From contig JAAOMT010000502.1 of the NCBI GenBank assembly GCA_016748015.1, positions 620,001-684,000 of the forward strand: a DNA stretch of 64,000 nt. The letters run 5' to 3'. The translations under genes were made by a program, and so were the position numbers. The DNA comes from Geosiphon pyriformis uo1. Lineage: Eukaryota > Fungi > Glomeromycota. Under the pieces are notes generated by a model that was not told the DNA's origin, made no database searches, and was given only the letters and a program-made list of their open reading frames with translations. Each line of letters opens with the position of its first letter. The first letter of the stretch is position 1. Shown piece after piece: positions 1,142 to 56,760 of the stretch.

Positions 1142-1171
1142 CTTTTGTTATATTTTTAAGTTAGAATGTTT

Positions 1172-4559: not shown

Positions 4560-4900
4560 AGTTGCAATTTTTAAATAATTTAGTCGAATATAGTGTTGGT
4601 CTTAAACAGCCAGTTGTTACCAACTAAAGCTTGGTATTGAATAGCTTTTATGATGAGAACTTTTATGAATACAATAATGCTATTAACTTCAAATGAAAAG
4701 TTATCAATATTGCCAATAGACATTTTTGTTATTCTATTGGCTGTAATAATTCTGGTACTGGCAGTACAATCAACTTAACAACTTAATTGGTTCATAAATT
4801 GTTATGTAATGATGCTGTTAATTGATTTACTGTTCAGAATCAGTTTGATGAACTGATTATTAACTGTGGCATTAGTATACATTGCTGTGATGAGTTTTGA
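4560..4900 (-). pseudogene. G1 aspartic protease (retropepsin)
   Basis: ITAMYTNATVNNQFIKLILNS (decayed LILDSG active site) in ORF 4802-4999. Confidence 0.82.
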
Positions 4901-6121: not shown

Positions 6122-6885
6122 TATTACAGTTGAAACTTATACTTCTTATTAATTATTAGATGTATTAGTCACTGATGTTATATAAATTAACCACCTTATT
6201 TTTAGAAAGTAATCATTGATCTGATCAATGACCTAATCATTGACCTAATTATTAACTTGATCATTAACCTGATCAATGATCTGATCATTGACCTGATCAT
6301 TGACCTGATTATTGATCTGATCATTGATCTGATTATTGACCTGATTATTAACCATTTTTGATAGCTATATAAGCAATAAATCTCTTAGCTGTAGAAAAAC
6401 ATGTAGAAATTAAGGAAATCAAATAAATAAAATAACAACTTTTATCTCAATTTTTCTCTTATTGCTAATTTTCCTTTCCCTACCTTCAAGTATCTGAACA
6501 TTTTGAGATAAAAAAATTACTTGTTGGTTATTTTTTACTCTTTTCCTGAAACATGTAATTGCAGCATTTGAAGACTATTGAATAAAATGTGACTAAAGAG
6601 TATATCTGATATTTGATATTGAATTTTAAGAGTGCTAACATGAGGCATAGAATTATACCAGTATGTGATCATTTGTTGACAGTATGGACTATCTCTCTAC
6701 CTTCAAATTCTTCAGTTATCTTTGAAAAGTATAGCAACTGAAATATTTTATAAGACTGATCTTACATATTGAATCCATACTCATTCAATTCGCTCTTGGA
6801 AGTTGAATTCTCTTTGATTATTTCCATTACCCTACAATTCTGTTCTCTCTTGCTATCCATTAGCTTGTTACTCCAACTCATAACA
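6122..6885 (+). repeat. G2 5' LTR with 12 x 12-bp array (6210-6353) and TATA box (~6366)
   Basis: Direct repeat of 13204-13941; TATTAC...TAACA ends. Confidence 0.95.
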
Positions 6886-6937
6886 TAAAAGTAGTGCTCC
6901 CTGTAAGGTTGTTAAATTCCACTTTGTTTTCTATTGT

Positions 6938-9900
6938 ATGAGTAATTATTCATACTTGCCACAACAATCAGAAGAACACTTTGAAGCACACAACAAAAAT
7001 GATCTAGACTTTATTGAACTCAATCCTTTGTCTTTTTGCTTGATTTGCTTTCTCATTGAAAAACAATCCAGCAGACAATTTCAAGACTTTTGGAACTGGT
7101 TCTTGAACAAGCATTTAGCTGAAACCTATACAGCTTATACAACTTATTACTTTGACCAAACTTATTCTGAAGACAACTTTGAAAAAAGAAACAACAGTAT
7201 TAATCAGCTTTTATATTCTACAACCTTTAAACAACAGCTCTTTGATTTCGAATATTTGAATCATCAAATCCACATTTGGATTGCTGCCCATCAATCAACT
7301 GAAACTCCTCTTGAAACAGAAGAAAAAAGCTATTAAACTGCTTCTGTTTTTGATTTTTTTTCAAGTGAATCAGAACACTCCATACAAACAGTTACACTTA
7401 AACCAATGGCTCAAGACTCTCTGCAACAAAACATTCTGATTACCCTCCAAGATATACAGACTGCTTTAGGGTAAAGAAACAACATCTCATTACTATTATT
7501 TAAAGGTAATGTCCAAGATTCAATTAAATAGCTGGACAATTTTAAGAGAGCTGTTACAGCAAACTAATATGATAATGAATACAAGTTCCAAATCATTGGT
7601 GGCTACCTCCAAAACTCTCTTGTTACTTGGTTTTCACAAAAAACCAATGCCAATGCTCAGCAAAAAATCATTAGATGAACACCAGCAAATGCTGGAGAAG
7701 ATAATACCTCTTTCACTATCTGATTTGAAACAAAATTTAGAACTCCTATCTTGATATCCAAATGGTGCATGGAGTTGGAAAGAAGAATCCAAAATCCAGA
7801 AAAAATAGTAACTGAATACGCTAAAGCCATTAGAAAACTAATTAAGCATGTAGACTTTGATAAAAATTAGACAGAAAAGCAAAAGATTCATTCCTTCACA
7901 AAAGGATTGAGAACTAATCTTTTATATGCTCTTTGGCCTCTCCTGGCCTTGAAAGATAATCCCACAATAGATATGGCCATTGAACTTGTCCAAAGAATAA
8001 AAGACAACCAAAGAATGCATCTAGAATCTACTTTTTCAGTTTTTGCTTCTGCTTCTGTTATGGCTCCAGCTTTACAAATGGCTGTTATCTCTTTTGCCAC
8101 TTACACTTAAGACTCCAATGAAAAATTAATAGACAGACTTACTGCTAACCTTGTTTGGCTATTAAAACTATTAGCCCAAGCAGTTAGAGACAACTAGCAA
8201 CCCCATAATCTAGATTTGAACTCTGCTTTAATTAGTCTCAACAACCACCATATCAAAGACAACAAAATTGTGGCCCACCTGTATGCTATCATTGTAGATT
8301 AACTGGACACTTTTCCAAAGACTGCAACAATCTTTCATTGCCCCCTCCAGCTCCTAGAAATAATGACATCCAGAATAACAGACTTAACAATAATAATGTT
8401 CTCAATCAAAGACCCAATCATGCCAACATCAATTTCTTTGGAGAGGATTCCCTAGTTAAAGCCACTGTTTATTAGCCTTTAAACTGGTAGACATACCTCC
8501 AAAGTGTAAGAGTGCAAGCCAACCAGAATAAAACTCCTTTTATGCTTTTAACCTAACTGATAATGATCATAATATAGATAAACTGGCAATCAACACCTCT
8601 GACTTAACAAGAAAGAAGAAGAAAGCCAAGATTAATTTCGTTCTAAATTCCAACAAAGCCTCAACTTCTACTGCTGACAACAATGAGCCATCAAAGACTA
8701 AAGTTTTTAAAATTTCTCCAAAATTAGAATTCCCAGAAATTGTACAAAAATCTGGACCCTATTCTGTTGTTAAAGATTTCATAGAAACTTCAGCACATAT
8801 TACATTTGACCAACTAATGACCCATCCACAGTTCAGAAAAGATCTTTGCAAATTCTTAATACCAAAGAAGAAGACATCAAAAACCAACAAACACTCTTGT
8901 TAAGCTGAACTTGCTGACAACAGCAATGTTACTCCTCTGATTTGTAAAGCCCAAGTGGCTGGCTACTTCATTAATTTAATTCTAGACAGTAAATTATTTG
9001 TTAGTGTAATTGCCAAACACTTTCTGGAAGCCATTGGAAAAAAGATTGATGAACCTTTCACCTGGTCTATGACTAATATATATGGTGACAAAAAAAAAGG
9101 TCTGGGTATAGCCAAAGCTGTTTCTGTTCACATCAATAATATCAGCATTGAAACAGACATGGAAGTATCTGAAGCAAAAGAGTATACTATTATTGTTGGT
9201 AATAAGTGGCTTAAGAAAGCCAAAGCACTACTTGACTATGAACTGTGTGAGCTAACTATCAGATGTGGTGAAAAACCCATTGTGGTTAAATGCTGTTATT
9301 GAACAACTTCTCCAGCAACTAAACAAAACCAAAAAGAAAAACAATCAGATAAATCAGATAATGATAAAAGCGATAATAAAGATTAAGAAGAACCAAAAAA
9401 AACTGTTGAACTTATCTATATTATTTTCACCAGCAATGGCAAGCCACTGGACAATATTAAAGCTGACAAAAAAAAATCATAGTAAATGGCAAGCTAATCT
9501 GCTGGTCCTACTATGATATCCCCAAAAAAACTTTTGACAAAAAACCTGGCAAGAAAGCCAAATACAGTTATTGGTGGCATGGTCTTTGTATATGGTGCTA
9601 GTATAATAAACCTTTGTATTTACCAAGTGATGAATACAAATCCTGCCTAATCTACTACAAAGATTGGGAACCAATTAGCTTGATACCTCGAGAAGAACTT
9701 AAAAAAGTACAAAAGTCCTTTAAGAATGAACCACCTAAAATTCAATTACTAGTTGTAGAACAATAAGAACATTTCCCTAAAGAAAAAAAAGTGGATATTG
9801 AAAATCTGTTGGCCAAAAATAGCCCAGTTATCTCAAAAGAAGGTGATACTCCTGGATGAATCCATGTAATACAATACACTATTACCACAAAAAAAACTCA

Positions 9901-11167
9901 TCTCATCCATTTGAAGCCTTATCAATCCAACTGATGTAATAATGAGTTTATCAAAAAAAAGATAAATAGGATGAAAAATCTTGAATTCATACAAGAAACC
10001 AAGAATGAATGGGCTTTTCCAGTTGTAGTAGTATCTAAGAAAAGTGGAACTCTACGCTTCTGTGTTGACTACTGCCAACTAAATACCATCACTATAAGAG
10101 ATATGTACCTACTTCCCAAAATTGATGCAATGCTAGATAAATTTAATGGTGCTGCTTTCTTCTTAACTATTGACTTAACTGCTGGATTTTGGCAAGTAGA
10201 GATGGATTCAAAAAGTAGAAAGAAAACTGCCTTCATTACCAAGTATGGCACTTATAAATTCACAATTATGCCTTTTGGTCTCATCAATGCTCCTTCCATC
10301 TTTCAATGTCTAATGGATAAAGTGTTTAAATCAGTGAAAGAAAACTTTGTTCTGGTTTACTTGGATGACATAATGGTATATTCAAAAACCTGGAATGAAC
10401 ATCTTGAACATTTACAGAAGGTTTTTGACCTGCTCAGAAACGCTGACCTTAAAATTAACTCAATTAAATCTTTTTTTGGATGCCAATCCACCTAGTTCTT
10501 TGGTTATTTTATTACAAAAGATAGAATCTTCCTTGACCCAGCTAAAATTGAAAAAGTTCAAAACATTAGACAACCAATAAATGTTTCTAAACTCCGCTTT
10601 TTCCTTGGTTTGGCCTCTTATTATTACAAATTTATCAAGAATTTTTCCAAAATTGCCTTTTCTCTCAATCAGCTACTCAAAAAAAATGTCAATTATTACT
10701 GAGGCACTCATCAACAAAAAGCTTTTGAAATTCTAAAGGAAAAACTTGTTATTAAACTAATTCTCAAACAACCTGATTTGAACCAATCTTTTATCCTTCA
10801 TACTGATACATCTGGCTATAGACTTGTTGCTGTTTTTTCACAGAAAAATAAAAATGGCAGAGAACATGCCATAGCATATGCCAATAAAATCCTTACACCA
10901 GCAGAAAAAAACTATTCAGTTACTGAACAAGAATGTTTAGCAGTAATTTAGACTACTAGTTACAGGAATCAATATCTCCTTGGTGCAAAATTTTTAGTGG
11001 TAACAGATCATCAAGTCTTGGTTTGGCTGCACAATAAAAAGAAGCTGGAACATAAATGAATAACTCACTGAATACTCCACTTGGATGAATTCGACTATAA
11101 TATTTAATACTACAAAAGAGCAAATCATCAAAACACCAATGCTCTCTTTAAACTTATTATTCAGTGA
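6938..11167 (+). pseudogene. G2 Gag-PR-RT-RNase H polyprotein, decayed
   Basis: CYHCRLTGHFSKDC knuckle (~8284-8325), LILDS protease (ORF 8955), RT LRFCVDY / MPFGLINAP / VYLDD (ORF 9971-10495), RNase H ending NTNALFKLIIQ then TGA TAG at 11165-11170. Confidence 0.93.
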
Positions 11168-11225
11168 TAGTACAATCTCTTAAACCAAACCAACTTAATT
11201 ATTAGTAACTCCTTTACAAACAAAC

Positions 11226-12540
11226 ATGATAATGGACTTGGACAACTATTCTGCCTTAATGAAATTTTTGGATAAAGAACAATATTCACTAGAATACATT
11301 TGACAGCAAAAAAAACATTTGTGCAAACAATCAAATTTCTATTTGATTCACCAGAACCAGCTATATAAAAGAAATAGAATAGATCCTGACTGCTCCCAAA
11401 AAGTCATCAGATTTGAAGAAAAAGAAATTGTAATATACAACATGCAAACTAACCCATTAGCTAGACACTTTGGAAAAACAAAAAAAATTCAGAAAACTTT
11501 AGCTCACTATTATTGGTCTACCTTGGGAAAAGACATTGCTAAATACATCAAAACCTGTAACATCTGTTAAAAAAGAGACAAACCCAATCGCAAAGAAGAT
11601 ATCCATCTAATTTTTGTTGGTCAACTATTTAACAAAATTGGTATAGATGTTGTTGGATCTTTAATAATAACTCCTGATGGCAACAGATATATTATCACAG
11701 CTACTGATTATTTTATAAAATGGGTAGAAACAAGAGCCATTTCTAACCAAACAGCAGTTTCAATAGCCAATTTTATTTATGAAGATATTATCTGCTGTTA
11801 TGGCTGCCTCAAAGAACTTTTATCTGATAGAAGAAGAGCTTTTCTCAGTACACTGATTAAAGAACTTTGCAGAAAAATGGGAATATGTCACAAACTTTTT
11901 TCTTCTTATCATCCTTAAACAAATGGTCTAGTAGAACATTTCAATAGAACATTATGTGAAACTCTAGCCAAAACCAGTGAAGAAACAAACTTATGAGACA
12001 AAGTACTGCCTTCAGCTTTGTTTGTTTATAGAACTGTGAATCATGACATAACAAGTTATAAACCTTTTTATCTGCTCTATGGATGCATGGCAACAGAAAC
12101 TGACATTAAAACAATACTTTTTAAAGAGATCACAATAGGAAATTACAAAAACATTTTGCAAAGAAAGCTTGGTACCATTCTTGACTCTTTGGTAGAAGCA
12201 CAAATAATTACTTTTGAAAAGATAAAACAGTTCCAAGAAAAGCTTAAAAGAAAAAAAACTTATAAAACACTTTTTTTAAGTATTGGTGACTTGGTATTGG
12301 AATACTGGTTAGACAGAGACAATGTTTATGATGATAAATTCTCTAGTCAGTGGAAAAAACCCTTTATAGTCAACAAAGTTTTGAACAATGATTCTTATAT
12401 TCTTTAAGATCAATCCAGAACAATCTTCAATGATCATTCTGTTCATAGTACACAACTCAAGAAATATCATAAACGACCTGATTGGTTGTCTGTTGTGGTA
12501 ATATTGACTCAAACAATCAGCAAAAATCAAGTATAAATAA
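11226..12540 (+). pseudogene. G2 integrase in its own ORF
   Basis: ATG 11226 (MIMDLDNY..), HHCC (ORF 11319-11570), IGIDVVG..ATDYFIKWVE core, NGLVE motif, W-x-x-PF tail; no chromodomain. Confidence 0.9.
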
Positions 12541-12577
12541 ATGCATCATTTCCAAAACAGAGGTATCTTTAATTGAC

Positions 12578-13234
12578 ATGAACAATTATTTTCTGAATCA
12601 AAACATTCAAAACATCTTCTATACTCTCCATGCATATTGGATCAAAAACTATCCAAATGCTACTCTGACTATTGGAAAACAAACCACCATAACTAATAAC
12701 AGTAGAACACATACTGTTATTAAACCAAAGAAAACTACTACCAGAAGAGAAAAAATTGATAGTAAAATAGATAAATATCTGTTGAAAAGTATAACAGCAG
12801 CTATACTCCTACCTTCCAACACAATTGGAAAAACACTCTAAGAAATCTTATTCATAGACAAAAACTTGTCATATGGAAGACAATTAGAACTCTATAATTG
12901 TCTTGGTAAAATCATAGAAGATATGAAACTTATAAAGAAAACAACTTCAGAGATACAAACAGAAATTTTGGGCATTATATGGTCAGATGTCCCAAGAGTT
13001 TTAACTATTGCTAGAAGAGCCAAAACTCTAATACGAAGATTTGGTCTTTTGAATACAAAACTCATTTCACCTTAAGTATTATATACCTTATCCACAAAAG
13101 ACTTCAACAAACTAATTAGCTTTAAGTTAGATAAAACCCTTCAAACAGATTACATCATAAATAGCTTGATTTCACCAGAGCTCAATTTCTTTGGAGAGGA
13201 TGATATTATAGTTGAAACTTATACTTCCTATTAA
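12578..13234 (+). pseudogene. G2 ORF-X, unknown protein (~218 aa) downstream of integrase
   Basis: A single frame joins ORFs 12482-12841 and 12866-13075 with two in-frame stops and ends inside the 3' LTR; homologous to G3 ORF-X. Confidence 0.75.
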
Positions 13235-13941
13235 TTATCATATATTAGTCATTAATGTCATATAAATTAGCCACTCTATTTTTAGAAAGTGATTATTGAC
13301 CTGATCAATAACCTGACCATTGACTTGATCATTGATCTGATTATTGACCTGATCAATAACCTAATCATTGACTTAATTATTGACCTAATCATTGACCTAA
13401 TCATTGACCACTTTTAATAGCTATATAAGCAATAAATCTTTTAGCTATAGAAAAACATGTAGAAATCAAGGAAATCAAATAAATAAAATAACAACTTTCA
13501 TCTTAATCTTTCTCTTATTGCTAATTTTTCTTTCCCTATCTTCAAGTATCTGAACATCTTGGGATAAAAAAATTACTTGTTGGTTATTCCTTACTCTTTT
13601 CCTGAAACGTGTAATTATAGCATTTGAAGACTATTGAATAAAATGTGACTGAAGAGTACATCTGATACTTGATATTGAATTCTAAGAGCACCAACGTGAA
13701 GCATAGAATTATACCAGTGTGTGATTATTTGTTAACAATATGGACTATCTTTCTACCTTTAAATTCCCCAGTTATCTTTGAAAAGTATAGCAACTGAAAT
13801 ATTTTATAAGACTGATCTCACATATTGAATCCATACTCATTCAATTCATTCTTTGAAATTGAATTCTCTTTGATTATTTCCATTACTCTACAATTCTGTT
13901 CTCTCTTTCTATCCATTAGCTTGTTATTCCAACCCATAACA
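13204..13941 (+). repeat. G2 3' LTR with 10 x 12-bp array (13290-13409)
   Basis: Direct repeat of 6122-6885. Confidence 0.95.
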
Positions 13942-15055
13942 GTATCTTAAAAAAAATATAAGATCATCTATAATGCTCTAATGTCATCCCATCTATTGGC
14001 TGCAATGGCTTTTTTCACATTATTAAACCAAACTTGGGCATCATCTTCTTTGCTGGTAAATTTTTTGAGTTTTGCAATTGAAGCATAGACTATTGGTGCT
14101 AGTGATAATTGTTATTATTGTGATTGCTGAAGTGGTGTTTACAACTATTGTTGTTGGTCAGTAATTGAAGCAACTGGTGGATTTATTATGATTACTGAAG
14201 GTAAGTTTTGAGAAACAATAGAAGTGGTATTTGAATTGTTCTGATTTTGCTGAATTAGAATAATTAGGATTTGTATTTTTGGGTTTTTCAAAGTCGGATT
14301 TTGATAATTAAATTTCTGATTTTTATCTTCCTTTTCTTCCAATTTCATTACTTCCCAAGGACTAGCAGTTCTGAAATCTGGTTGGAGTGAGAATAATCAA
14401 AATTTTAATGACATTGGTAATTGCAATTTAAATCTCTCAAAATAATGGCCATAAGTTTTTAATAACTCTGCTTTCTTCTGTTTACTTTAGAATGAGATTC
14501 TGTTTAATAGTATTGTCACATTTGCTGTGGATGCATTTGTTGATATTATATTGATAATACTTCTAAGTGTGTGATGATATAATAGATTAACTGGTAAATT
14601 AACTCTTTGTTTTTTTCAAGTAGATAATTGTATTTGCTTTGGGGTTTCTGCTAATGTTTATAGTTTTTCTTTGTCTTTTTTTGTGTATGTAATAGGAAAT
14701 TTTTATTAAGTATGATTTTCAATTTTCCTGTTGATTTCAGTGATAATCAATGCAAAGTTGTGGTTTAATGATAAGCTGATATATTGAATTAATTTATTAT
14801 AAAAATTTTTTCTTGTTAATTCTGTATTTATTGGTTCTCTTAAAAAATATTTAATTCTTTTATTGACATAAAAGTTGAAGACTAATTCTATTAATAATTG
14901 GTTGTTGATTAATTCCAAGTGTTTACAATAGTGTTGAAATAATAATTTGGTGAATCTTAGATGGTTTGTTTTTCTTATTTCTGATTCTGCCACTTTTAAA
15001 TAGTTGTTGTTAGTGCTGGTTCTTTGTAGGATTATACTTTACAAAAAGCACCAAA

Positions 15056-15913
15056 TATTACAAATAATTATTTAGGGTGTTGATACAAATAACAAATTTG
15101 TAGCTTGGTGCTTAATAACTGTTCTGATTGGTAATATTTAAAGATTTTGGTTAAGTTTTTTGTATAATAGACAGAGATTCAAGTGTTGTTTTAGTAGCCT
15201 TTTGAAATTGCAATTCTGTCTAATTTCTGTTTTTAGCATGGTGACCAGTTTATTTTAACAGTCATGTCCTTCTGGTAAGCTTATTCATAAATTTTTTTAA
15301 ACTTTATGCCTTTCCTTTGGGATCTTTTACCAGACTATCCTTAATATCACTTAATTAATGCTTAATCTCTTAAATCAATTAGTAAACAATAAACAACAAA
15401 AAAATAAAAGAAATAAATAAAAATAAAGAAATAAGCCAAAGCAAGAAAGAGTTAGTATTCTGTTAATAGCTGTGATTAAAAGCTATTAATCCAGTATAGT
15501 TTAAATATTAGTAACTATCAACATAAATTGTTGATAGTAAAAAGATGAATTGTAATATTTAATAAGTATTTTATTGATATTTTATGTTTCTATTTTAAGT
15601 TATAAAATACTATTATATAAAAAAATAGGTCTGAATTGGAATTGGAGATTCTAAACTAATAATTCTGTCTTTTTTGCTTCTAATGCTACTATTATATATA
15701 CATAAATTTTATTGTACGAGATTCCTTGAATTCCTTAATTCTCTAGCCAGGAATCTTGCAATTTTGGAATCCTGCAATTTTTCACATAGAATCCTGTAAT
15801 TCTGCAATTCTGCAATTCCTTTAAAAAAAATTTTGGAATTCCACTTTTACTATATTTTCTTCTGATTGGCTAATTATGTACTAATATATAATTCTTATAT
15901 TTTATGAGTAACA
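15056..15913 (-). repeat. G1 5' LTR
   Basis: Termini T(A/G)TTAC...GTAACA, adjacent PBS, TATA-like TATATATAA (~15692-15700, minus), and (GAATT/GCAATT)-type short repeats at 15720-15840. Confidence 0.75.
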
Positions 15914-16519
15914 ACATATAAATTACAATTAAAAAACAAAGTTTTAATCAAAACAATATATAATAATTAATTAAAACTATATTATATTAAGTTATTATTA
16001 ATTAGTATATTATAATTAAAAACACAAAAAATACCAATTAAATCAAATAAAGTTTTTATAAAATCTAAAGCCAATTATTATTATTATTTTTATTGCAAGT
16101 TTAGCAAGTACAGCCCAACTACTACCTAAATACATAAAATCAAACAAGATTCTAAATTAAATATGGCTTATGTCTTTTCTATATGTGACCGAACACTCAG
16201 CCCAATCAAGGCAGCACTACGCACATACAGGATCCATTAAAGGGATACTATTTAAGAAACCAAAGCCCAAACTAGTGAGACAAGGACACAAACCAAAACA
16301 CAAATAAATATTTAACCTGATACCAAAGCTGCAAATAACATCAGTAGTTTACAAGTCTAACAAACTATTAACCAATGGCACAGCAGATTCATTACATGAC
16401 AAAAGATTGTGTTTTTTGTAAAAGACTCTCAATTTAGCAGTAGGCAACCAAATATTAGATCTATGACTCTCAGCAAGACTACAGATCAACTTAACAATCA
16501 AGCTATCACCAGAAGCCAA

Positions 16520-17486
16520 TATTACTGGAAGTTTTTGGTCTCTTTTTTTAAATGTTGTTAATGTTGGTTTGCTGTTAATTCACATTCTTAAAAAGTAGTT
16601 GGACCTCCAGTAACTGAATTTTATCTTCAAATTATCTCCTATAATTTGAACTGCTGGGCTTATGAGTGGAATGGCCAATTCTGTGCCAGTTACTTTGTGT
16701 AGTTACATTGTAGTAAACATCAACTCTTTCCCAGGAATTGCTCATCTGGAAGCTCACTAAAAATGTGTAGTTACTTTGCTGTGAAAGTCAACTTTTCTAC
16801 AGGAATCTTGTCTGTAGGCTACCCTAATGATTATGATAAAAAAAAAAGAAAAATAAAGAAATGTAAAAGAAATAAGAATTTTATCAAGAGAAACGTTTTC
16901 TATCCAGGCCTGGAGTCACTAACAGATTACTGAAATTGGTAGCTAATCAATTTTAAAATGTTAGTTGTGTTGAGAGAATTTCAAGTATAATAATTTAAGA
17001 ATTTGGTTTTTCGAATATTTTTATTTTTATTTAATTTTGTAAAAGGTGATTTGTTTCAATTAAGATATTTGAAGTAAGTTACTATGATAAGATATGAGAA
17101 TATACATTTTTTTGAAGAGAGAAGCTCTTCTTTTATACAACTTGTTGTAGTACTAGTCTTTGAACTTGCACTTTTCTCTTTGCTCCAATTTTAGTGAACT
17201 AAAGATACATTTTGGTGAACTACAAGTTATTTCTATGAATTATTAATTATTTCGGCCAATTTTTCATTAATTTCGGCGAATTTTGACTATATTAAATGGT
17301 TCAGAGTATTGTGTAATTTGATTATCTTAATTTTTATAGTACAAATCGAGTTATTGATTGAGTAATGATATTTAATAATTTGGCTAATTAATAAGTGATA
17401 ATCGAAATGATAATAATATGCTACTTAATAATAGGAATTATGAAAATAATTTCGTACTAATTAATAGTTAAATTCTACTGGTAACA
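16520..17486 (-). repeat. G3 3' LTR
   Basis: Direct repeat of 25173-26139. Confidence 0.95.
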
Positions 17487-18174
17487 TAATTTCCTTCTTA
17501 AGACTGAGCTCCATCGAAGTTCAAGCACTATCTGTAATGTCAAGATAGTGGTCCAAAATAATTGAAGTGATTTGGTCTGAAAATTGTTAAAATTTCAGTT
17601 TTGTGAGCTTTCTAATATATTGAATCTTCATTGGATGAAGTATTGGATTTTGTAAGACATTTTCACATGTGTTGAATAAATCATAGAGTCTAAATGCTGC
17701 TCTAAGTTTGTAGCAAGTGTTTGTTGGTCCAGCTGCTGTCTTGAATTCTTTGTGAATTTGTTTTTGTATGGTTTCAGGAGTGATGTGTGTTGTTTCAAGT
17801 TCTAGTTTTTGTTTATAAAGTGTTCTTTCAATATGAAAGTATCTATATATAAGAGTATGTTCATTGTTCTGTTCATTAAGGAATAGTAGAAGTTTTTGTT
17901 AAATTGTGGCATTTGGTGGAATATCAATAAGGGCAGATAAAAGATTTTCTTTTAGTGCTTGCTTCAATAGTTCTGGTAACTGACTTCCAGAGTAACCTCT
18001 TGGTTTTCTTCTATAAGGGTAATAATTCTGTGAATTGTTTATTACTGAGGCTGTAGTTTCTTTCTAAATGTAATTAATTTAACTTCCATTAATTGTTATG
18101 GATAAATTAGGAAGTGTTTTCAAGACTAACATTAATTTTTGGAATATTTGTTGAATATTTCGGGGAATAATCAT
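17461..18174 (-). pseudogene. G3 ORF-X, unknown protein (~237 aa)
   Basis: ATG 18174 MIIPRNIQQIFQKLMLVLKTLPNLSITING...; one frame with 5 internal stops, ending at TAA inside the LTR. Confidence 0.75.
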
Positions 18175-18336
18175 GATAAAATTGACTAATTAATAAAGCA
18201 AAAAAAAAATAAAGAAAATAATTTTTGGGTATAGGATTTTTATTTGTTTTTGGGTTTTAGTGTTTCTTGTAATTATTTACTATTTTTTTGTTTTTATGTT
18301 TGTGTATTTTTAGAAGAGATTATTAAAAATGTTAAA

Positions 18337-19718
18337 TTAAGTATTCAAGTTTAATTGTTGTTCTATTATAACTATTGGTTCTAAATTTTGGGAAATATCT
18401 TTAGAATTAACTAAAGAGAAATGTGTACCAATTTGTAGAATTAATGATTCAGAATTGTTTCTGAAATAATAGTGTTTCAATCTATCTCTATGTGCAACTT
18501 TTGCTAGTACTTTGTCATCAAGTTTTAACTTGTATGATCTGTTGCCTAAAATTTTGTGAATATAAAATGGTCTATTCTATTTATATTCAAATTTTCTACT
18601 CCATTGTTTTTTAGCCTTAGTTCTGTATAAGAGAACTTTATTTTTAACTTTAAATTCATTGGTGACTGATAGCAGTTTGTTGTTATGTCTTTCTTTTTGT
18701 AAAACTTGGAAGTGTTTAATATGAGTAGCTGCTATGTGTCTTTTTCCTTCCAATGTATTAAGAAAAGTGTAGGCTCTTCTTTGGAGTGTTTCTTGAAAGT
18801 TTTCTTTATTGATTGGTTGCACTGAGTATGTTTCCATTGTGAAATTAATTGGTAATATTGCTGTTCTTCTATAAGTAAGATCAAATAGTATGTGTTTTAT
18901 AGTATCTTGTTTTAGTGTTCTATATGCTAGTAACACTGATAGAATAAAAATATCTCATTTCTGCTCAAAATTTGTTAAGACTTTGGCTAAAGATTTACAC
19001 AATGTTCTGTTGAAACATTCTACAAGTTCATTTGTTTGAGAGTAATAAGATGATAATAGGGGTCTTTTAATATTGAATTGTTCATAAATTTCTTGTATTA
19101 AGTTGTTTACAAAATGTGTTTCTTGATCTAATAAGAGTTCAATTGGACATCTATATCTACAAATAATGTCTTCATAAATGAAATTTGCTACTGATTTTGC
19201 ATTTGCTCTTTAGATGGCTCTAGCTTTAGGCCATTTGGTGAAATAATTTACTGCAACTGCAATATAACGATTTTCTTAAGTTGTAATAAGTAATGGTCTA
19301 ACTAAATTAATTTTAATTCTGTCAAAAAGTTGTTCAACTTTGATTGGATTTAAAGGTTCTGTGAGGCAAGTTCCTTCTCTTTTTTGACAACTATCACAAG
19401 ATTCTACATATTGTCGAATGTCTTTTTGTATGTGAGACCAAAAATAATGTTCAAAGGTTCTTTGGATTGTTTTATTTCTTCCCAAGTGTGCTGAAAATAA
19501 ATCTGTATGCATGTTGTATAGAATTGTTTCTTTTTCATTTTTCTGTATTAGTCTGAGTAGTTGGTTTGGGTTTCTATAATTCTTGTAATAAATTTTATTG
19601 TAGTGTATAAAATATTGTTTGGGTATTGTAATCAATGTTTTTCACTTGGAGACCAATTTTCTGAGATGGTAAGAGTCTCCAAATAATTTTTAAGATTGTT
19701 GTAATTTCTGAAATCCAT
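18337..19718 (-). pseudogene. G3 integrase in its own ORF
   Basis: ATG 19718 MDFRNYNNLKNYL; H..H..CDSC (ORF 19276-19635); core and C-terminal part (ORF 18577-18936). Confidence 0.9.
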
Positions 19719-19773
19719 TGTTGTTTTGTTGTTTTGTTGATAGTAATAAGTTGTAATGGAATTGTTAGTGGTG

Positions 19774-22700
19774 TTAATTTTGTCTTATTCTTGAGAGGCT
19801 ATTAATATTAGTGTGTAATTTTCTTGGTTTGTAGTGTAAAATATATATGTAGTCTGCTAGAAAATTATTTCATTGAGACTGTTTGGCACTTTGTTTAGTT
19901 TTCTTTTTATTGAACTATTTAAGGCCAATATTGTCAGTTATGATGTCAAATTCTTTTCCATTTTTCAGATATTGCTAAAAATGTTTAATAGCCCAAATGA
20001 CTGCAGCAGTTTCTAATTCAGTTGAGCCATATTTGAGTTCTGTTGGCTTGAGTGTTCTACTGGCATAGACAATGACTTTTTTCTGGCCATTTTCATCCAA
20101 TTGTAATAAAATAGCACCAAATGCTATGTGTAAGACATCAATGGCTAGTTGAAATCATTTGTTGAAATTTGGATAAGCAAAAACTGGAGCTGTTGTTAAT
20201 TTTGTTTTGAAGGTGTCAAAGGCTTTCTGTTGTTCTTCAGTCCATTGATATGACACGTTTTTGTTGGTAAGATAGTTGAGTGGTTTGGCAATCTCTGAGA
20301 ATCCTTTTATGAATTTTCTATAGTAAGAAATTAATCCTACAAATCCTCATAGTTCTGTGGTATTTTTGGGAGTTTGAAAGTTTTTGACAGCATTGATTGT
20401 TCCAGGGTTTGGTTTAACTCCATCTTTGCTAACAATGTGTCCAAGAAAGATTAAATTTGTTTTTCCAAAGTGACATTTTTTAATGTTCAACTTTAATTCT
20501 GCTTTCTGTAATCGTTGAAAGACTTTTTGCAGGTGAATAAGATGAGCTTCAAAGCTTGATGAGTACACATCAGTGTTATCAAGATAGACAACTACTGATT
20601 GCCACAAGAGTCCTTTATATACAACATCTATGAGTTGTTAAAATGTTGCTAATGCATTGAAAAGTCCAAAAGGCATAACATTGAACTCATAGTTTTCTCT
20701 TTGAGTGGTAAATGCTGTTTTGGGTCGATCTTTTGGGTCAATTTTGACTTGTTAGTATCTACTTTCCAAGTCTAAAATTGAGAAGAACTTGGCTTTTCCT
20801 AGAGCATCTAGCATGTTATCAATTCTTAGAAAAGGGTAGGCATCTCCAATTGTCATATTGTTTAGTTGGTGATAGTCAACACAAAATCTGATTTTTTTAT
20901 TTTTCTTTTTAACAAGGACTACTGGTAAGGTTCAAAGACTTCTTGATGGTTAAATTAATTCATTATTGAGCATTTTCTGAACTTCTTCCTTAATGAATTG
21001 GTGGCTGGCAGGTGGCACTTGATAAGCTTGTTGTCATTTTGGTGGAGCATCTCCTATGTGAATTTAATGTTAAACAATATCCATTTTTTCAAAATCATTA
21101 TTGTCTTTTGCAAATATGTTAGCAAATTTAGCTATTAGCTGTTTTAATTGTCTTTGTTGTTGAGGTTCTAAGAGATCCATGTTGATTTGAAAGAGTTTTT
21201 CTTCTAACAAGTAGTAGTTTTCAGTAGTAGAAATAATGTTTGGATTTGGAAATAGTGTATGTTTTATAATTTCGATAAAATTAGAAACAATTTGAGAATT
21301 TTCATCTTGGAAAATATTGCTGTGTATGATTCCAATCTCTAATTTATTCAATAAAACAATAGGGTAATTATTGGGATTGTAGAATATAACTCAAAATTTT
21401 TTCATTTCTTTGGGAATATAAACATTTGGAATTGAGATTTTATGTTTTAAACAGATTTGTTCATTGGATTCAAAGATTTGTTAGGTAGTGGTGGGTTTTG
21501 AGCAAGTGTAAATTTCGTGATGTTCTCCAAAAGGTGAAATAGTAATTGGTTAAAAAAGTTAAAGAATCTGGTAAGATTCATTTTGTGCATTAAGAGCTGT
21601 TTATTAATACTGTAAATTGTCCAGTTGAACCAAAATCTTGCATTCTTCTTTCACTTTTTCCCAATTGTTCTCTGTTGTTAACTGATTGTAAACCCAAAAT
21701 ATTGATTAAAGATAGGTAAATTGCTTGGCCAATTTTTTCAGCATGTTTAATTTTGAATGGTTTGTCAGTTTTATTTTGTAGCATAATAGTAATGTCTCCA
21801 GTATATCCTGCATCTATAACTCCTTCTCTAACATTGATTCCTTTGCTTGCCAATGATAATCTGGATGCAATTTGAATCATTGTTTTAGGTGGAATTTCAA
21901 GAGCAATTTTGAGATTGATTTTTGTTAAGGACTTTGGTTGGAGAACCAAAGTATCTTTCTGAATATCTTAGATCATATTCAGCATCAATCTTGTATGCTT
22001 TTTCTGGTCTGATTTCTTGGCCATGGTTGTCGAAATATTTAAGTTATAGAAGTGATTGATTTTTAAAAAAATAGATGGGAGTGATTGGTAGTTTTTTTAC
22101 CAGTTCAGATACTCCAAATTCGATTTCATTTTCATTATTTTTATCTGGCAGAAGAATACTAAGTCAAAAATCATTTTAGCATTATGAGAGTAGTGGTAGA
22201 GTTTATTGAGAGCACTGTTGTATGCTGCATTAAATAGTGTTCCTCTTCTGACTTTTTTCGAAATTAATAGAGCATATTGACAGGTTTGATCACATACTTC
22301 TCCTCTCATGCAACATCAATCCAGTTGTATTTTTCTAGTAGCATATCTTCACATGTAAGACAAGAAGTGTTGTCCCATTTTCCACTCTTTTTGGGATATC
22401 CAAATCGTTCTTTATGGCATGTTTTGCAAAAGTAACAGATGCAAGTTTCATATTCTTCTTCTGGAAAAATACATGCTCCTATTGATGAAAGCTTTTTCTT
22501 GCAATCTTTGCATCTTAATGAGATATATGATGGTTTTTTTTGTGGTTCTGGTGTAAAATACCTAACTTTCTTTCATTCTCTTAATTCTTCAAAAATCTTT
22601 TATTCTGTTTTCTCAGCCCAATTGGATGTTAATCCAAGTGCCATATAAGTTTCAGTGAGTGGCATTTTTTTTTCCTCCTCAAATTCAAACACTAGAGCTT

Positions 22701-25127
22701 TTTCTGATCATTTGTTAAAAATATCATAAGTAGCAGGTACTATGGTGTATTGTCTTTGGTATGAGATTTTGAGTTCCTAAGTTTTTTAATCTAACTTTGC
22801 ATTGGCCTTGAGAAGCCAATCATTTTCAATAAGAGCTTGGTATTGGGGTGCATCCATGACTAGAACTTTGACTGAAATAGTGATTCCATCAATGATAAAT
22901 GGGAAATTGTCAATTTTTCCTACTAGTGTCTTTTTCATATCATCTGCTATAACAATTACAGTTTGGGCTGATCTGTCAACAGTTTTTTGAAGCTGTTGCA
23001 TTAATTGGTAAGTAATAATACTTCCAGTAAATCTACTGTCTAAAATTAATTGGATGGGCTTTCCTTCTACTATAGCTTCAGTGTACATGGCAGTAATAGT
23101 TTTTTGCTCATTGATTGCTGCATTGCTAAGCAAGAATAATGATTCATTTGCTTCAAATTCGAATGAGAATATATCTAAAAAATTGGCATTTTGGGCAATT
23201 TGGGCTGGTGGAATAGTATTGTTAAAAGAGTTTGATCTTGGTGCTACAACTTCACCTTCAGAAAGTGCAGTTTGTTAAAAATCCGATTCTTCTTGCATTG
23301 TTAAATAACTAGGTTGAGTATAAAACTGAATGGGTTTTTGTTGAACAGAATTTCGAAGAACTAGTTGATTATTGGGGTTAAATTTGTTGTGGTTTGTTAA
23401 GAAACGGTTTTGTGGTGTAAATTGGTTTTGTTAGACCAATCTTCTGGCTGGTACTTAATATTGTTGAGTGAATGGTATTTGATATTGCTGAATTGGTAAA
23501 GGCTGCTAATATTGTTGTTGCATTGGTTGTGAAGCTGGTTGATAGTAATTGTTTTGATTTTGTGGTCTTGATGGATAATAAATTGGTGGTAAAGATTGGT
23601 AATAAGTTTGTTGTGATGGAGAATAACATTGATTATTTTTGTTTTGTTGGTCTCTTTGCAATTTTCTGCAATCTCATTTCCAGTGTCCTGAAATTTCACA
23701 ATAATGACAACTTTGAGGTTGGTTGTTAAATGGTGATCCAAAATTGTTTTGGTTGCATTGTTGTGGTGGTTGATATCTTTGTAGTTGCTGCAGTTGTTGT
23801 TTGTTGGTTTGTCAACCTTTTTTGTGAGTTGGTCTATTTTTTTTTCAGCTGCTGAGCTGGTTTCTCCAATAGCTAGGTTGACAAGCTTGGTGTGGTTTGC
23901 TTCTTCCATTGCCATTTCATAATTCTTTATATGTCTAATGGCAGTGGTTAAGTCTTCTGGAGCATGTGAACAAACTTTCTTAATGAGTTTGTCTTTTAAT
24001 TCTGCTATGAACTGATTTAAAATCTGGGCATTAGAATAGTAGTCATTGGTTTCTAATTGTCAAATTCATTGAAAAAGTTTGTTGAATTTTTCAAGATAGG
24101 TTATAACAGTTTCAGATGTTTTTTGTTTAATATTTCGAAAGCAATTGTGGAGAGTAATAGAGATGTTGTCAGTAAATTGTTGTAAAAAAGCATTTTTGAA
24201 TGCTTGCCAGTTTCCAAATGGTTCTTCTAAGTTTTCAAATCATTCTTCTGCAGTTCTTTGGAGAAAGTATGGGATTGCTTTGAGCATTCTTGCTGCATTC
24301 CAACCATTTGTATCTTCTGCTTTTTGAACTTTGTCAAGCCATTCTTGAGGGCTGATATCATTATTTTCACCAGTAAATTCTGGAATCTTTGCAATGTAAG
24401 CAGTTGCTATTTTTTCTTCATTTTCTGTAGTTTTTTTTTGTTCTGATTCAGTTTTCTTACTTTCCAAGTTCTCTGAATAATTACTTTTATTTTTTTGTAA
24501 GTAATCAATAATATTGGTGCTGGTTAATATTGTTTCCTGCTGTTGAATAGGATTTCTAGGTAACTAAAAGTCTTCTGGTCTGGAGAAATGGTTAAGTGGT
24601 GAATTTGGTGTTTGCAGTCAAGCAAATGAAATTAGAAATAGTGTAATAGAAAGTGGTAGTTTAATACTGGTTCCTTGTTCAAGTGTTTACAAGTGTTTGG
24701 TAGTTGTTTTTGGTGTCTTTGGAGTATTTGGAGTGGTATTTGAGTGTTGTTTCAGTTTTTGTTTGCTTTTGTTGTTTGTTTTTGTTTCTGATTCAAAGCC
24801 AATAGAGTATTTAGACTGTACTAGGTATGTTTTTTCACAATACTTGATAATGTTAAAATTGAGTTTTTGGAAATAGGTGGCAAGTGTTTTACTATTAAGG
24901 TTTTCAGTTCCCAACTGTAAATAGTGCACTAAATTATTGTAAAGATTGCTTCTAATTTCTGAAATGTTGTAATCTCCAAGAAAATAATTGTTAATATGGT
25001 TTTCAATGTATTGGTAAAGTGTCTTTTTAACAATTTTAATTCCGTCTGGAATGTTGAATCTCTGCTTGCAATGAGTGTAAATTGACTGATAATACTTTAG
25101 AGTTGTTGTATCTGGTATGATCACCAC
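19774..25127 (-). pseudogene. G3 Gag-PR-dUTPase-RT-RNase H polyprotein, decayed
   Basis: Gag IPEFTGE..PQEWLDKV (24240-24467), knuckle at ~23655-23710, LILDS protease (22786-23133), dUTPase (21590-21949), VVYLDNT RT (20347-20607), RNase H ending NSLSRIRQN* at 19774. Confidence 0.93.
21610..22010 (-). pseudogene. G3 dUTPase domain
   Basis: DAEYDL, ASRLSLASKG, GVIDAGYTGDI, EKIGQ, SERRMQDFGSTG: all five dUTPase motifs. Confidence 0.93.
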
Positions 25128-25172
25128 TTTGAAGTTGTTATTGCTGTATTATTTCTATGAGAGAGCCCTAAA

Positions 25173-26139
25173 TGTTACCAAAGGTTTTTGGTCTCTTTTT
25201 TTAAATGTTGTTAATGTTGATTTGCTGTTAATTCACGTTCTCAGAAAGTAGTTGGATCTCCAGTAACTGAATTTTATCTTTAAATTATCTCCTATAATTT
25301 GAACTATTGGGCTTATAAGTGGAATGGCCAATTCTGTACCAGTTACTTTGTGTAGTTACATTGTAGTAAACATCAACTCTTTCCCAGGAATTGCTCATTT
25401 AGAAGCTTACTAAAAATGTGTAGTTACTTTGCTGTGAAAGTCAACTTTTCTACAGGAATCTTGTCTGTAGGCTACCCTAATGATTATAATAAAAAAAAAA
25501 GAAAAATAAAGAAATGTAAAAGAAATAAGAATTTTATCAAGAGAAACGTTTTCTATCCAGGCCTGAAGTCACTAACAGATTACTGAAATTGGTAGCTAAT
25601 CAATTTTAAAATGTTAGTTGTGTTGAGAGAATTTCAAGTATAATAATTTAAGAATTTGGTTTTTCAAATATTTTAATTTTTATTTGATTTTGTAAAAGAT
25701 GATTTGTTTCAATTAAGATATTTGAAGTAAGTTACTATGGTAAGATATAAGAAAATACATTTTTTTGAAGAGAGAAGCTCTTCTTTTATACAACTTGTTA
25801 TAGTACTAGTCTTTGAACTTGCATTTTTCTCTTTGTTCCAATTTTAGTAAATTAAAGATACATTTTGGTAAATTACAAGTTATTTTTACGAATTATTAAT
25901 TATTTCGGCCAATTTTTCATTAATTTCGGCGAATTTTGACTATATTAAATGGTTCAAAGTATTGTGTAATTTGATCATCTCAATTTTTATAGTACAAATC
26001 GAGTTATTGATTGAGTAATAATATTTAATAATTTGGCTAATTAATAAGTGATAATTGAAATGATAATAATATGCTACTTAATAATAGGAATTATGAAAAT
26101 AATTTCGTACTAATTAATAGCTAAATTTCACTGGTAATA
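25173..26139 (-). repeat. G3 5' LTR
   Basis: TGTTAC...GTAATA; direct repeat of 16520-17486. Confidence 0.95.
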
Positions 26140-36120: not shown

Positions 36121-36264
36121 ATATATTTTTTTATTTTATTTTTTTATTTTAACAAATGAGGTCCACACACAATCTAGCACTATACATCAAAGAAATGATC
36201 TAAACTAGGCATGAATCATGCACTTTCTACACGTGACCAGCCACTCGGGCCAGTTAGAACAACA

Positions 36265-42875: not shown

Positions 42876-43257
42876 AAGAGAAATAGTGAAATATAGCAAG
42901 TAGAAAAAACAAAAAACAAAGAAACTACTTTCAAAAACGTGCTCTTTGGAGAATTTGGGATGTAGGAGAGAAAGAAGTTTTTGGTTTGTTTTAACAGTAT
43001 TTTTATATATATTATTGGTTAAAATTATTAACATTTAATAAAAAATGCTTAAATTTATAATTTCAGAATTATAATAATACTTAAAACTAAGTTTTTTATT
43101 TTTTTTAAATTTATTATATTATTACTATTATTAATAGTTTCAAAATTAAAAAAATTTAGAACAAAATATTTTTTTTGTATAACTTAAACTAATTTTAATA
43201 ATAAAAATTGAAAAGAAAAAGATAAAAATATATAAAAATAAAAATAATATAAAATAT

Positions 43258-43969
43258 TATTATGAATTGGAATAACAAATTAATAGATAGCAAAGAAGAA
43301 CAAAATTATAAGGTAATAAAAATAATTAAAGAGAGAATTACAATAAGGAAGTGAATTAAATGAATAAAGATTCAATATATGTAATCAGTCTTATAAAAAT
43401 CACAGTTGCAAATTTTTTTTGCAAATTTGAAGATAGAAGAATAATTTATAATTGTCAACAAGATAACATTACTGCTATTATTCTATGTTTCAACTCAGTG
43501 ATTCTTAGAATTAATAACAAGTATTATTGTGCTTTTCAATTATTTCTTTATTTAATAAATCATAAGAGCAAGCAATCATTTCTTAGACTAATTCTAACAA
43601 TACAAATCAAAAATAAAAAAAATAAGATATGTGAATGCCAATAAATAATTTTTTATTCCAAAATATTTAAATACTTAAAGATAGAAAAAAGAAAATAAGT
43701 GATATGAGAAGAAGTAATTGATAATGGGTTTTATTTTGTTACTTTGATCATGTTTTTTTATAGCTAAGAAACTCATCACTTATATAACTATTGAAAGTGA
43801 TTAATGACCAAGTCAACAACTAGGTCAATAATCAGATTATTGATCAGGTTAATGATTAGATTATTGATCAGATCAATAATTACTATCTAAAAATAGAGTG
43901 GCTAATTATATAACATCAATAACTAATACATGTGATAGCTAATAAAAAGTATGGGTTTTAATCATAATA
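43258..43969 (-). repeat. G4 3' LTR (7 x 12-bp units, 43799-43882)
   Basis: Reverse complement of the G2 LTR family. Confidence 0.9.
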
Positions 43970-46900
43970 TTATTCTTTCCAAAGAGATTGAGTTCTGGTG
44001 AAATCAAGCTATTTATGAAATAATCTATTTAAAAAGTTTTGTCTAATTTAAAATTAATTAGTTTATTAAAGTTTTTTGTAGATAAAGTATATAATATCTG
44101 AAACAAAATGAGTTTTGTATTCAAGAGACTAAATCTTTATATAAGAGTTTTGACTCTTTTAACAATAGTTAAAACTCTTAAGATATTTAATCATATAATA
44201 CCCAAAATTTTTATCTGTATCTTTTAAGTTGTTTTCTTCATAAGTTTTATATCTTTTATGATTTTACCAAAGTGACCATAGAGTTCTAATTGTCTTTTAT
44301 ATAATAAGTTTTTGTCTATAAACAAGATTTCTTAGATTGTTTTTTCAATTGTGCTAGAAGATACAAATATTTTTGCTGTTATACTTTTTAGCAGATATTT
44401 ATTCATTTTGCTATCAATTTTTTCTCTTTTGGTAATGGTTTTCTTTGGTTTAATAACAGTATGTGTTCTATTGTTATCAGTTATAGTGATCTGTTTTCCA
44501 ATAATCAAAGTAACATTTAGATGATTTTTGATCCAATACTTATAGAAAGTATAGAAAATGTTTTAAATATTTTGATTCAAAAAATAATTGTTTATGTTGA
44601 TTAAAAATACCTCTGTTTTGGAAATAATGTATTTATTTATACCTAATTTTTGCTAATTATTTGGGTCAGTATTATTACAACAGACAACTAATCAGATTAT
44701 TTATAATATTTTTTGAATTATGTACCATAAACAGAATAATCATTAAAAATTGTTTCATATTAATCTTGTAGAATATAAAAACTATTGTTTAAAACTTTGT
44801 TGACTAAAAAGAGTTCTTTCTATTGGCTAGAGAATTTATTATTATAGACATTGTTTTTGTTTGAATAGTATTCCAATACTAAATTACCAACATTTAAAAA
44901 AAGTGTTTTATAAGTTTTCTTTTTTTTAAGCTTTTCTTGGAACTGTTTTATCTTTTTAAAGACAATTATTTGTGCTTTTACCAATAAGTTAAGAATAATA
45001 CCAAGTCTTTTTTGTAAAATGTCTTTATAATTCTTTATTGTGATTTCTTCAAAAGATATTGTTTCAATGTTAATTTCTATTGGTAGTGTTGTCATGCATC
45101 CATAGAGTAGATAAAAATAATTATAACTTGTTATGTTATAATTCACAATTGTATAAGCAAACAAAGCTGAAAGCAGTACTTTGTTCCATAAGTTTGTTTT
45201 TTCACTGGTTTTGGTTAAGGTTTTACATAATGTTTTATTAAAACATTTTACTAGGCCATTTGTTTGAAGATGATAAGGGGAGGAAAGTTTATAATGTATT
45301 TCTATTTTTCTACAAAGTACTTTAACTAATGTACTAAGAAAAGCTTTTTTTCTATCAGATAAAAGTTTTTTGAGGCAGCCATAATAGCAGATAATATTTT
45401 TATAAATGAAATTGGCTATTAAAACTGCTGTTTGATTTAAAGTGGCTTTTGTTTCTATCCACTTTGTAAGATAGTCAATAGCTGTGATAATATATATATT
45501 ATCATCAAGAGTTATTGTTAGAGATTTAATAACATCTATGTCAATTCTGTTAAATAGTTGATTAATAAAGATTAGATGAATATTTTCTTTTCAATTGGAT
45601 TTGCTTTTTCTTTGGCAGATGTTATAGGTTTTGATGTATTCAGCAATGTCTTTTTCTAAGATAGATTAATAATAGTGAGCTAAAGTTTTCTGAATTGTTT
45701 TTGTTTTTTCAAAGTGTTTAGCTAATAGATTAGTGTATATATTATAAATCACAATTTCTCTTTCTTTAAATTTAATAACTTTCTGGAAGCAGTTAGGATC
45801 TTTTTTATTTCTTTTGTAAAATTGGTTTTGGTAAATTAAATAAAAATTTGGTTGTTTGTGCAAATATTCTCTTTGCTGTTAAGCATAATTTAGTGAATAT
45901 TGTCTTTTATCCAAAAATTTTATTAAGACAGAATAGTTGTTCAAGTCTATTATTATGTTTGTTTGTGAAGAAGTTACTAATAATTAAGTTGGTTTGGTTA
46001 AAAAATTGCACTATTATTAGATAGTAAGTCTGGAAAGAACATTAGTGTTTTGATGATTTGCTCTTTGGCAATATTGAATGTTATAATTTAATTCATCCAG
46101 ATGGAGTATTCAGCAAGTTATTTTTTTGTGTTTTAGCTTTTTTTGTTGTGTAACTAAACCAAGGCTTGATAATCTGTTACTACTAAAAATTTTACACCAA
46201 AAAAATATTAATTTTAATAACTAGTAGCTTAAACTACTGCTAAGCATTCTTGTTTAATATGTTTTCTGCTATCTTCATCTTTTTGTAAGAAGATAGTGCT
46301 AAGTTTATAGCTAAATACATCAGTGTACAAAATAAAAGGTTGGTTCAGATTAAGTTGTTTAAGAATTGGTTTAGTAACAAGTTTTTCTTTTAAAGTTTCA
46401 AAAGCTTTTTGTTAATGAGTGCTTCAATAATAATTGACATTTTTTCTGAGTAGCTGATTGAAAAGAAAAGTGATTTTAGAGAAATTTTTAATAAATTTGC
46501 AGTAGTAAAAAGCCAGACCAAGGAAAGAACATAGTTTAGAAATATTTATTAGTTGTCTAATGTTTTGGACTTTTTTAACTTTAGTTGCATCAGAAAAAAT
46601 TCCATCTTTTATAATAAAATAACCAAGAAACTGGGTGAATTGTTATTCAAAAAAAGATTTGATTGGGTTTATCTTAAGACCAGCCTTTCTAAGGAAGTCA
46701 AAAACTTTTTGCAAGTGTTCAAGATATTTATTCCAGATTTTTGAGTATATTATTATATCGTCCAAATAGACCAGAACAAAGTTTTCTTTTACTGATTCAA
46801 ATACTTTGTTTATTAGACATTGAAAAGTAGGAGGGGCATTGGTAAGACCAAAAAACATGACTGTAAATTCATAGGTATTATACTTGGTAATAAAAGCAGT

Positions 46901-49900: not shown

Positions 49901-50210
49901 ATTGTTTCTTTCTTTAAAGTTGTCTTCAAAATAAGCTTGGTCAAAGTAATAAGTTGTATAGGCTGTATAGGTTTCAATTAAATGCTTATTTAGGAACCAG
50001 TTCTAAAAGTTTTGGAATTGTTTACTGAATTGTTCTTTAATAAAGAAGCAAATCAAGCAGGAAGGCAAAGAATTAAGTTTAATAAAATCTAAGTTGTTTT
50101 TGTTGTATGCTTTAAAGTGTTTTTCTAATTATTATAACAGATATAAATAATTACTTATACAATTGAAAACAAAATAGATTTTAACAATATTACAAAAAGC
50201 ACTATTTTTA

Positions 50211-50897
50211 TGTTATGAGTTGGAGTAACAAGCTAATAGATAGCAAAAAAAAACAGAATTATAAGGTGATAAAAATAATCAAAGAGAAAATTACAATAAT
50301 GAAGTAAATTGAATGAATAAGAATTCAATATACATGATTAGTCTTATAAAAATCACAATTGCAAATTTTTTTACAAATCTGAAAATAGAGAAATAGTCTG
50401 TGATTATTACAAAATAATACTACTACTATTATTTTATGTCTTAACTTGGTAATTTTTAGAATTAATAACAAATATTGTTGTGCTTTTTAATTGTTTCTTT
50501 ATTCAATAAATTACAAAAGCAAGTAATTGCTTTTTAAACTAATTTTAACAATACAAATCAAGAAAAAAATAAAATAAAATATATAAATACTAACAAGTAA
50601 TCTTTTATCCCAAGATGTTTAAATACTTAAAAGTAGAAAAAAAAAATAAGTGATATGAAAAAAAGTAATTGATAATGGGCTTTATTTTATTACTTTGATC
50701 ATGTTTTTCTATAGCTAAAAAACTTATTACTTATATAGCTATTAAAAGTGATCAATGATCAGATCAACAACTAAGTCAATAATCAAGTTATTAATTAGAT
50801 CAATGATTACTATCTAAAAATAAGGTGGCTAATTATATGACATTAGTGGCTAATACATGTAATAGCTAATAAAAAGTATGGATTTTTAACCATAACA
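50211..50897 (-). repeat. G4 5' LTR (5 x 12-bp units, 50750-50809)
   Basis: TGTTATGAGTTGG...CATAACA; direct repeat of 43258-43969. Confidence 0.9.
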
Positions 50898-50901
50898 ATA
50901 C

Positions 50902-56758: not shown

Positions 56759-56760
56759 AA

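Follow-up and report, generated by a model that had tools for sequence, protein, structure and literature searches.

Accessory genes at the 3' end of retroviral genomes, such as nef and the foamy virus tas/bel genes, overlap the polypurine tract (PPT) and the U3 region of the long terminal repeat (LTR); tas is expressed from an internal promoter, and its product activates the LTR of the same virus. The frame described here, ORF-X, has a similar arrangement in Ty3/Gypsy retrotransposons of the fungus Geosiphon pyriformis uo1 (Glomeromycota). It was studied in a window of 64,000 nucleotides (nt) (contig JAAOMT010000502.1 of assembly GCA_016748015.1, positions 620,001 to 684,000). The likeness to nef and tas/bel is one of arrangement: ORF-X also overlaps the PPT and U3, but it reaches only 26–32 nt into the LTR and no cognate site was found.

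Additional open reading frames (ORFs) are a known class in LTR retrotransposons, with functions that are mostly open according to PMC7264820. The frames termed aORF-3S there resemble ORF-X in position, orientation, the presence of many copies per family and unknown function. However, as outlined in that review, aORF-3S are env-like, some with membrane helices and spliced mRNA, whereas ORF-X is soluble, runs across the PPT into the beginning of the LTR and is likely served by a TATA box of its own. The maize element Grande has an accessory gene, gene23, towards the 3' end of its interior, which is transcribed from a promoter of its own and encodes a nuclear protein (PMC7264820). It is cited here as the precedent for a nuclear ORF-X product made from its own promoter, although gene23 is antisense and from a plant, and the two are likened by description. 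The non-envelope ORF3s of bdelloid LTR retrotransposons (PMC5408684) share with ORF-X the env position, the occurrence in dUTPase lineages and ORF3 types common to several families; unlike ORF-X, which has no catalytic residue set and no Pfam match, they encode catalytically equipped enzymes (GDSL esterase, DEDDy exonuclease). PMC2864245 mentions fungal Gypsy elements that have a dUTPase and additional ORFs without a name, and the main text of PMC11952901, on the transposons of these fungi, does not contain the whole words 'ORF' or 'env'. A literature search found no description of the ORF-X family, which is apparently undescribed.

A third gene between integrase and the 3' LTR

These fungal Gypsy elements almost certainly possess a genuine third gene, ORF-X. 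It lies between pol and the 3' LTR, in sense with gag-pol as is characteristic of aORF-3S, and occurs in many copies per family. In the window it is present in three elements, G2, G3 and G4 (Table 1), as had been noted in a first, sequence-only reading. However, G4 is merely a further copy of the G2 family (83% DNA identity with G2), so the window holds two types of ORF-X, not three. That reading described frames with their own start that cross the PPT and end inside the LTR; the positions, the PPT crossing and the LTR entry (31 nt in G2 and G4, 26 nt in G3) were borne out, but none of the frames is intact and that of G4 begins with ATA. All window copies are broken and can make no protein. 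They nevertheless have far fewer stops than expected by chance: in 2000 shuffles of G2 even the most open of the three frames had at least 5 stops (2 observed), and 1 of 2000 shuffles of G3 had 5 or fewer (5 observed).

At E<=0.001 the G2-type frame has 129 homologues and the G3-type frame 166; the close homologues listed for both are all G. pyriformis gene models. Lengths were counted in the best 120 of each set. Among the G2 type, 19 of 120 are open copies of 218 amino acids (aa) with a start identical to that of the window frame; the G3 type includes 3 proteins of 235 aa, 20 of 239 aa and 35 of 221 or 225 aa, the latter mostly beginning at the second methionine. A profile search of 1.84 billion proteins gave 35 matches, including two further Geosiphon lineages and two metagenomic proteins; the G3-type family comprises five lineages that are 18–37% identical and alignable end to end.

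The position after integrase recurs in metagenomic DNA, where at least two relatives were found among the 593 stretches listed. In one Gypsy locus (L002), reverse transcriptase (RT), RNase H and integrase are followed by a 316-nt spacer and an intact ORF-X of 230 aa, which crosses the PPT and stops 32 nt inside the putative LTR. In another (L001), ORF-X lies downstream of an integrase-like end, read by eye. For a further lineage, integrase C-terminal motifs are also found in 18 of the 39 gene models that match its motifs, which is consistent with the same position.

Comparison of two G3 subfamilies (235 aa and 239 aa) points to constraint on the protein. Their 47 fixed differences are more conservative than 267 rare, copy-specific ones (BLOSUM 0.32 vs -0.50, p 7e-4), and the C-terminal core differs at 12 of 97 columns as against 22 of 57 in the middle (p 2e-4). 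Together with the open full-length copies and the same position in a metagenomic element, this constraint upholds the proposal of an undescribed, soluble, non-env accessory gene.

Relationship of the G2 and G3 types

The RTs of G2 and G3 are 46% identical, and their LTRs are, as previously stated, not alignable (score 41; shuffled mean 27, maximum 45 of 200). The ORF-X proteins had been called alignable, which does not hold at standard significance: BLASTP gives E 0.015 and hhalign a probability of 0.2% with E 0.35. A more diverse profile gives a likewise non-significant E of 0.018–0.054, hhalign probabilities being 0.2–1.2% overall. What stands is a suggestive profile–profile alignment in which the G2 type and the five-lineage profile are colinear across 202 columns; with the last 18 columns (the PPT) removed, its score was reached by 109 of 6869 column shuffles and 247 of 6981 block shuffles (permutation p 0.016–0.035).

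The two types are probably homologous. Besides the alignment, two separate low-confidence models share the order of helix, strands, linker and helix run (65% agreement vs at most 61% in shifted controls), and length, position and stop offset are alike. A less probable account is that these are two unrelated accessory genes, common only in position and in a DNA signal beside the PPT. The very low hhalign probabilities argue for it, as do the C-terminal cores, which when aligned alone reach z 0.2–0.4; moreover, the G3-family hidden Markov model (HMM), run on the window, did not find the G2 and G4 frames, and three database searches seeded with G3-type sequences had no G2-type protein among the matches listed.

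The pair SPELNF/SMELSL, earlier offered as part of the protein match, overlies a DNA motif shared beside the PPT and is therefore no independent protein evidence. This pre-PPT motif occurs three times in the window, each directly ahead of a PPT (0.56 expected), and is present in L002 too; in one ORF-X lineage the terminal peptide, as judged from the proteins, would fit the motif read in another frame. For the C-terminal motif pairs, the sequence-only reading, hhalign and the profile alignment disagree in register.

An 18-nt stretch holding the PPT is repeated exactly near the gag end of G2 (8431-8448, 13184-13201), and occurs with mismatches at both places in G4 (48666-48683, 43972-43989), which makes 4 matches with 0.18 expected. 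This repeat may act as an additional plus-strand primer or belong to a frameshift signal.

Properties of the protein

ORF-X has no membrane helix: the best 19-residue Kyte–Doolittle mean is 0.44–1.44 in 8 of 8 natural copies, in agreement with the earlier statement that an env-type anchor is lacking. No named family was found for it in Pfam, NCBIfam or PHROGs, nor a clear match in the PDB. The invariant columns (L, I, L, N, F, L) are hydrophobic or Asn; they include no catalytic-type residue set and there is no Pfam match, so the protein does not fit the enzymatic ORF3s (GDSL, DEDDy, dioxygenase). In the N-terminal half, 7 of 7 copies have a 15-residue stretch of net charge +4 to +6. The protein would consist of three parts: an N-terminal helix with a beta-hairpin, a basic linker modelled with low confidence, and a C-terminal helical domain of about 110 residues.

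A likeness to Glomeromycota hypothetical proteins, suggested in the first reading, is upheld for the modelled G3-type core. A natural G3-type member has an ESM Atlas model with a predicted template-modelling score (pTM) of 0.59. Its core resembles an unnamed Atlas cluster of 127 aa (63 members, eukaryotic and most often Mucoromycota), with a feature similarity of 0.93 and template-modelling (TM) scores of 0.66/0.63 over 99 residues; both sides of the comparison are predicted models, and the feature and TM scores count as one source. A second unnamed Mucoromycota cluster (190 aa, 98 members) reaches a feature similarity of 0.92 to the core, and the other rows have TM scores of 0.36–0.49 by query. 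The clusters to which the modelled core is matched have no Pfam family or function.

A weak lead comes from DUF1016_N (PF17761), the N-terminal domain of bacterial YhcG, which may be related to the G3 type, with colinear helices and similar aromatic/Gly motifs. With 10 sequences, hhalign gave E 0.0011 and z 6.4, and the DUF1016_N HMM scored 46 of 120 G3-type copies at >=8 bits as against 0 of 2400 shuffles. The candidate is post hoc; Pfam's own DUF1016_N model does not match ORF-X, and the G2 type does not match. DUF1016 is treated in sections of PMC1913061, PMC3424549 and PMC4316617.

Expression

ORF-X seems rather likely to be transcribed from an internal TATA promoter of its own, which would be the simplest means of getting a third frame translated. 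The candidate element, TATAAATA, precedes the frame in G2 and G4 (Table 1), lies 126 nt ahead of the ORF-X start in L002 and is also found in the L001 spacer; it is thus present in the spacer of three of four lineages (G2/G4, L002, L001), with a frequency of 1.1e-4 per base in the window. A short mRNA would then start in the spacer and end at the poly(A) site of the 3' LTR. In L001, TATAAATA is followed after 111 nt by a second open frame of 128 codons (425-811), which separates the end of integrase from ORF-X and has no Pfam match.

Proposed role and alternatives

We propose, with a probability of roughly 0.4, that ORF-X encodes a nuclear accessory protein acting on the LTR DNA or chromatin of its own element. 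The product would enter the nucleus, bind nucleic acid and keep the element transcribed, either by switching it on or by shielding it. Its action would be family-specific, gene and adjoining LTR being inherited as one block, because the divergence of ORF-X far outpaces that of integrase and the gene lies next to U3: between lineages with ORF-X at 19–21% identity, the integrase C-termini are 58–73% identical. A conserved integrase, a divergent ORF-X overlapping U3 and unrelated LTRs are better fitted by a family-specific factor inherited with the LTR than by a fixed partner of integrase. This LTR or chromatin regulator is placed ahead of an RNA-level factor and of an integration tether.

Several results weigh against the proposal. 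The open copies are gene models, selected for being open. The AlphaFold models of ORF-X are poor (predicted local distance difference test, pLDDT, 48.5 and 41.0), and the sole DNA-binding lead faded when DUF1016_N was compared with 53 sequences (E 0.016, block-shuffle p 0.15). Shared motifs of spacer and LTR, counted as k-mers, are not above control windows in G2, G4 and G3 and are borderline in L002 (3–8% of controls), and TATAAATA is not in the G3 spacer. Purifying selection, which the sequence-only reading took as a check on the gene, is seen at the protein level in the G3 type but is not significant for the G2-type frame. There the subfamily test of the same kind gives p 0.09, and the DNA comparison of G2 with G4 gives p 0.07 or 0.28, with p<0.001 for RT of the same pair. 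It is thus for the G3 type alone that constraint is demonstrated.

An action on RNA, by suppressing small-RNA silencing or by exporting, packaging or chaperoning the element RNA, is improbable, given that no RNA-binding family matches in Pfam, NCBIfam or PHROGs and that a general silencing suppressor need not vary so strongly between families of one genome. Even less probable is a role in integration, with ORF-X standing in for a chromodomain and tethering integrase to chromatin. In favour of it, Pfam scans show no Chromo match in ORF-X or at the integrase C-termini, which have an SH3-like domain only, and target duplications are similar (4 bp) across G2-family insertions; but ORF-X forms a frame of its own outside Pol, with a likely promoter ahead of it, and its divergence relative to the integrase ends would be unexpected for an obligate partner. 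A passively carried piece of a host gene, suggested by the unnamed Mucoromycota proteins (possibly host genes) that the core resembles, or an env-like protein, suggested by the env position, is very improbable, since the frame is kept open and constrained across lineages at 18–37% identity and the missing hydrophobic segment, and with it a membrane anchor, excludes env.

Beyond the LTR or chromatin role itself lies a wider scenario, which we regard as doubtful. In it, a retrovirus-style accessory gene with its own promoter would be present throughout a clade of Glomeromycota Gypsy elements, even in families whose LTRs are unrelated; the gene would encode a new helical nucleic-acid-binding fold common to an expanded unnamed Mucoromycota protein family, would co-evolve with the adjoining U3 and would allow each family to activate its own copies, or to lift their silencing, in a genome strongly depleted of CpG.

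ORF-X offers a defined case that can be tested: the orphan protein is soluble, intact copies occur naturally and the position is conserved across lineages at 18–37% identity. It provides a starting point for work on an unnamed Mucoromycota domain, and it makes transposon genes of well over 200 G. pyriformis 'hypothetical proteins' (240 listed, some chimeric). Should the element prove to encode its own activator or anti-silencing factor in this way, the multiplication of Gypsy elements in these fungi would be easier to explain.

Organization of the window

The window is AT-rich and CpG-depleted (CpG observed/expected ratio, o/e, 0.16). Self-comparison shows three complete LTR elements, G2, G3 and G4 (Table 1). 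Each has two LTRs with a target duplication, a PPT and the pol order protease, RT, RNase H, integrase of Ty3/Gypsy elements, with RNase H of the window copies recognised by eye. In the Pfam scan, G2 and G4 each matched RT and integrase, and the matches for G3 were protease, dUTPase and integrase; the zinc knuckle and protease of G2 were, like its RNase H, recognised by eye from the translation.

Table 1. Features of the G2, G3 and G4 elements, in window positions.
Feature	Position	Strand	Remarks
G2 element	6122-13941	+	LTRs 87% alike
G2 5' LTR	6122..6885	+	87% to 3' LTR; 4-bp target duplication
G2 gag-pol, degraded	6886..12530	+	RVT_1 E 1e-32 at 9935-10492; rve at 11571-11915 (Pfam)
TATAAATA in G2	12532..12539	+	sole copy in 6.3-kb G2 interior; candidate internal promoter, 46 nt ahead of the ORF-X ATG
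G2 ORF-X	12578..13234	+	218 codons; ATG start; 2 internal stops (codons 88, 166)
G2 pre-PPT DNA motif (13178-13188) and PPT	13178..13203	+	inside ORF-X
G2 3' LTR	13204..13941	+	contains final 31 nt of ORF-X and 12-bp tandem array 13290-13409
G3 element	16518-26139	-	LTRs 95.5% alike
G3 3' LTR	16518..17486	-	contains final 26 nt of ORF-X
G3 ORF-X	17461..18174	-	237 codons; ATG start; 5 internal stops
G3 PPT and shared pre-PPT motif (17501-17511)	17487..17511	-	
G3 gag-pol, degraded: protease, dUTPase, RT, integrase	18297..25170	-	Asp_protease_2, dUTPase E 9e-15, Integrase_H2C2
G3 5' LTR	25171..26139	-	pairs with 3' LTR at 95.5%
G4 element	about 43250..50898	-	LTRs about 43250-43969 and 50210-50898, about 80% alike
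G4 ORF-X (G2 family)	43939..44595	-	ATA start; 6 internal stops; G2-type profile 344 bits
TATAAATA in G4	44634..44641	-	same place as in G2

G2 is nested inside the gag of another element, G1, whose gag resumes beyond the insertion (window 1-6121 and 13942-about 15912); the 5' LTR of G1 likely starts near 15912, and its 3' end lies beyond the window. A dUTPase lies between protease and RT in G3 (21593-21967) and G1 (3065-3499); in G2 and G4 this domain was not seen. G2 (duplication at 6118-6121/13942-13945), G3 and both solo LTRs of the G2 family (56754-57503, 57875-58675) all have target duplications of 4 bp, which differ from the 5 bp usual for chromoviruses.

The G3 LTRs have a CpG o/e of 0.45–0.52 compared with 0.11 in the G3 body, as for a less methylated promoter. 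The G2 LTRs hold a 12-bp unit in 10–12 copies (13290-13409, 6212-6353), a candidate binding array for an LTR-acting factor. Further along the window, frames at 51684-53443 (minus strand) with weak matches to Med26/TFIIS-N (E 3.5e-4) and PWWP (E 6.5e-4) probably belong to a host chromatin gene. Three related non-LTR-like repeats are found at about 27800-31800, 35700-42450 and 60480-64000, and a frame at 40953-42452 (minus strand) has an RRM match (E 5e-8).

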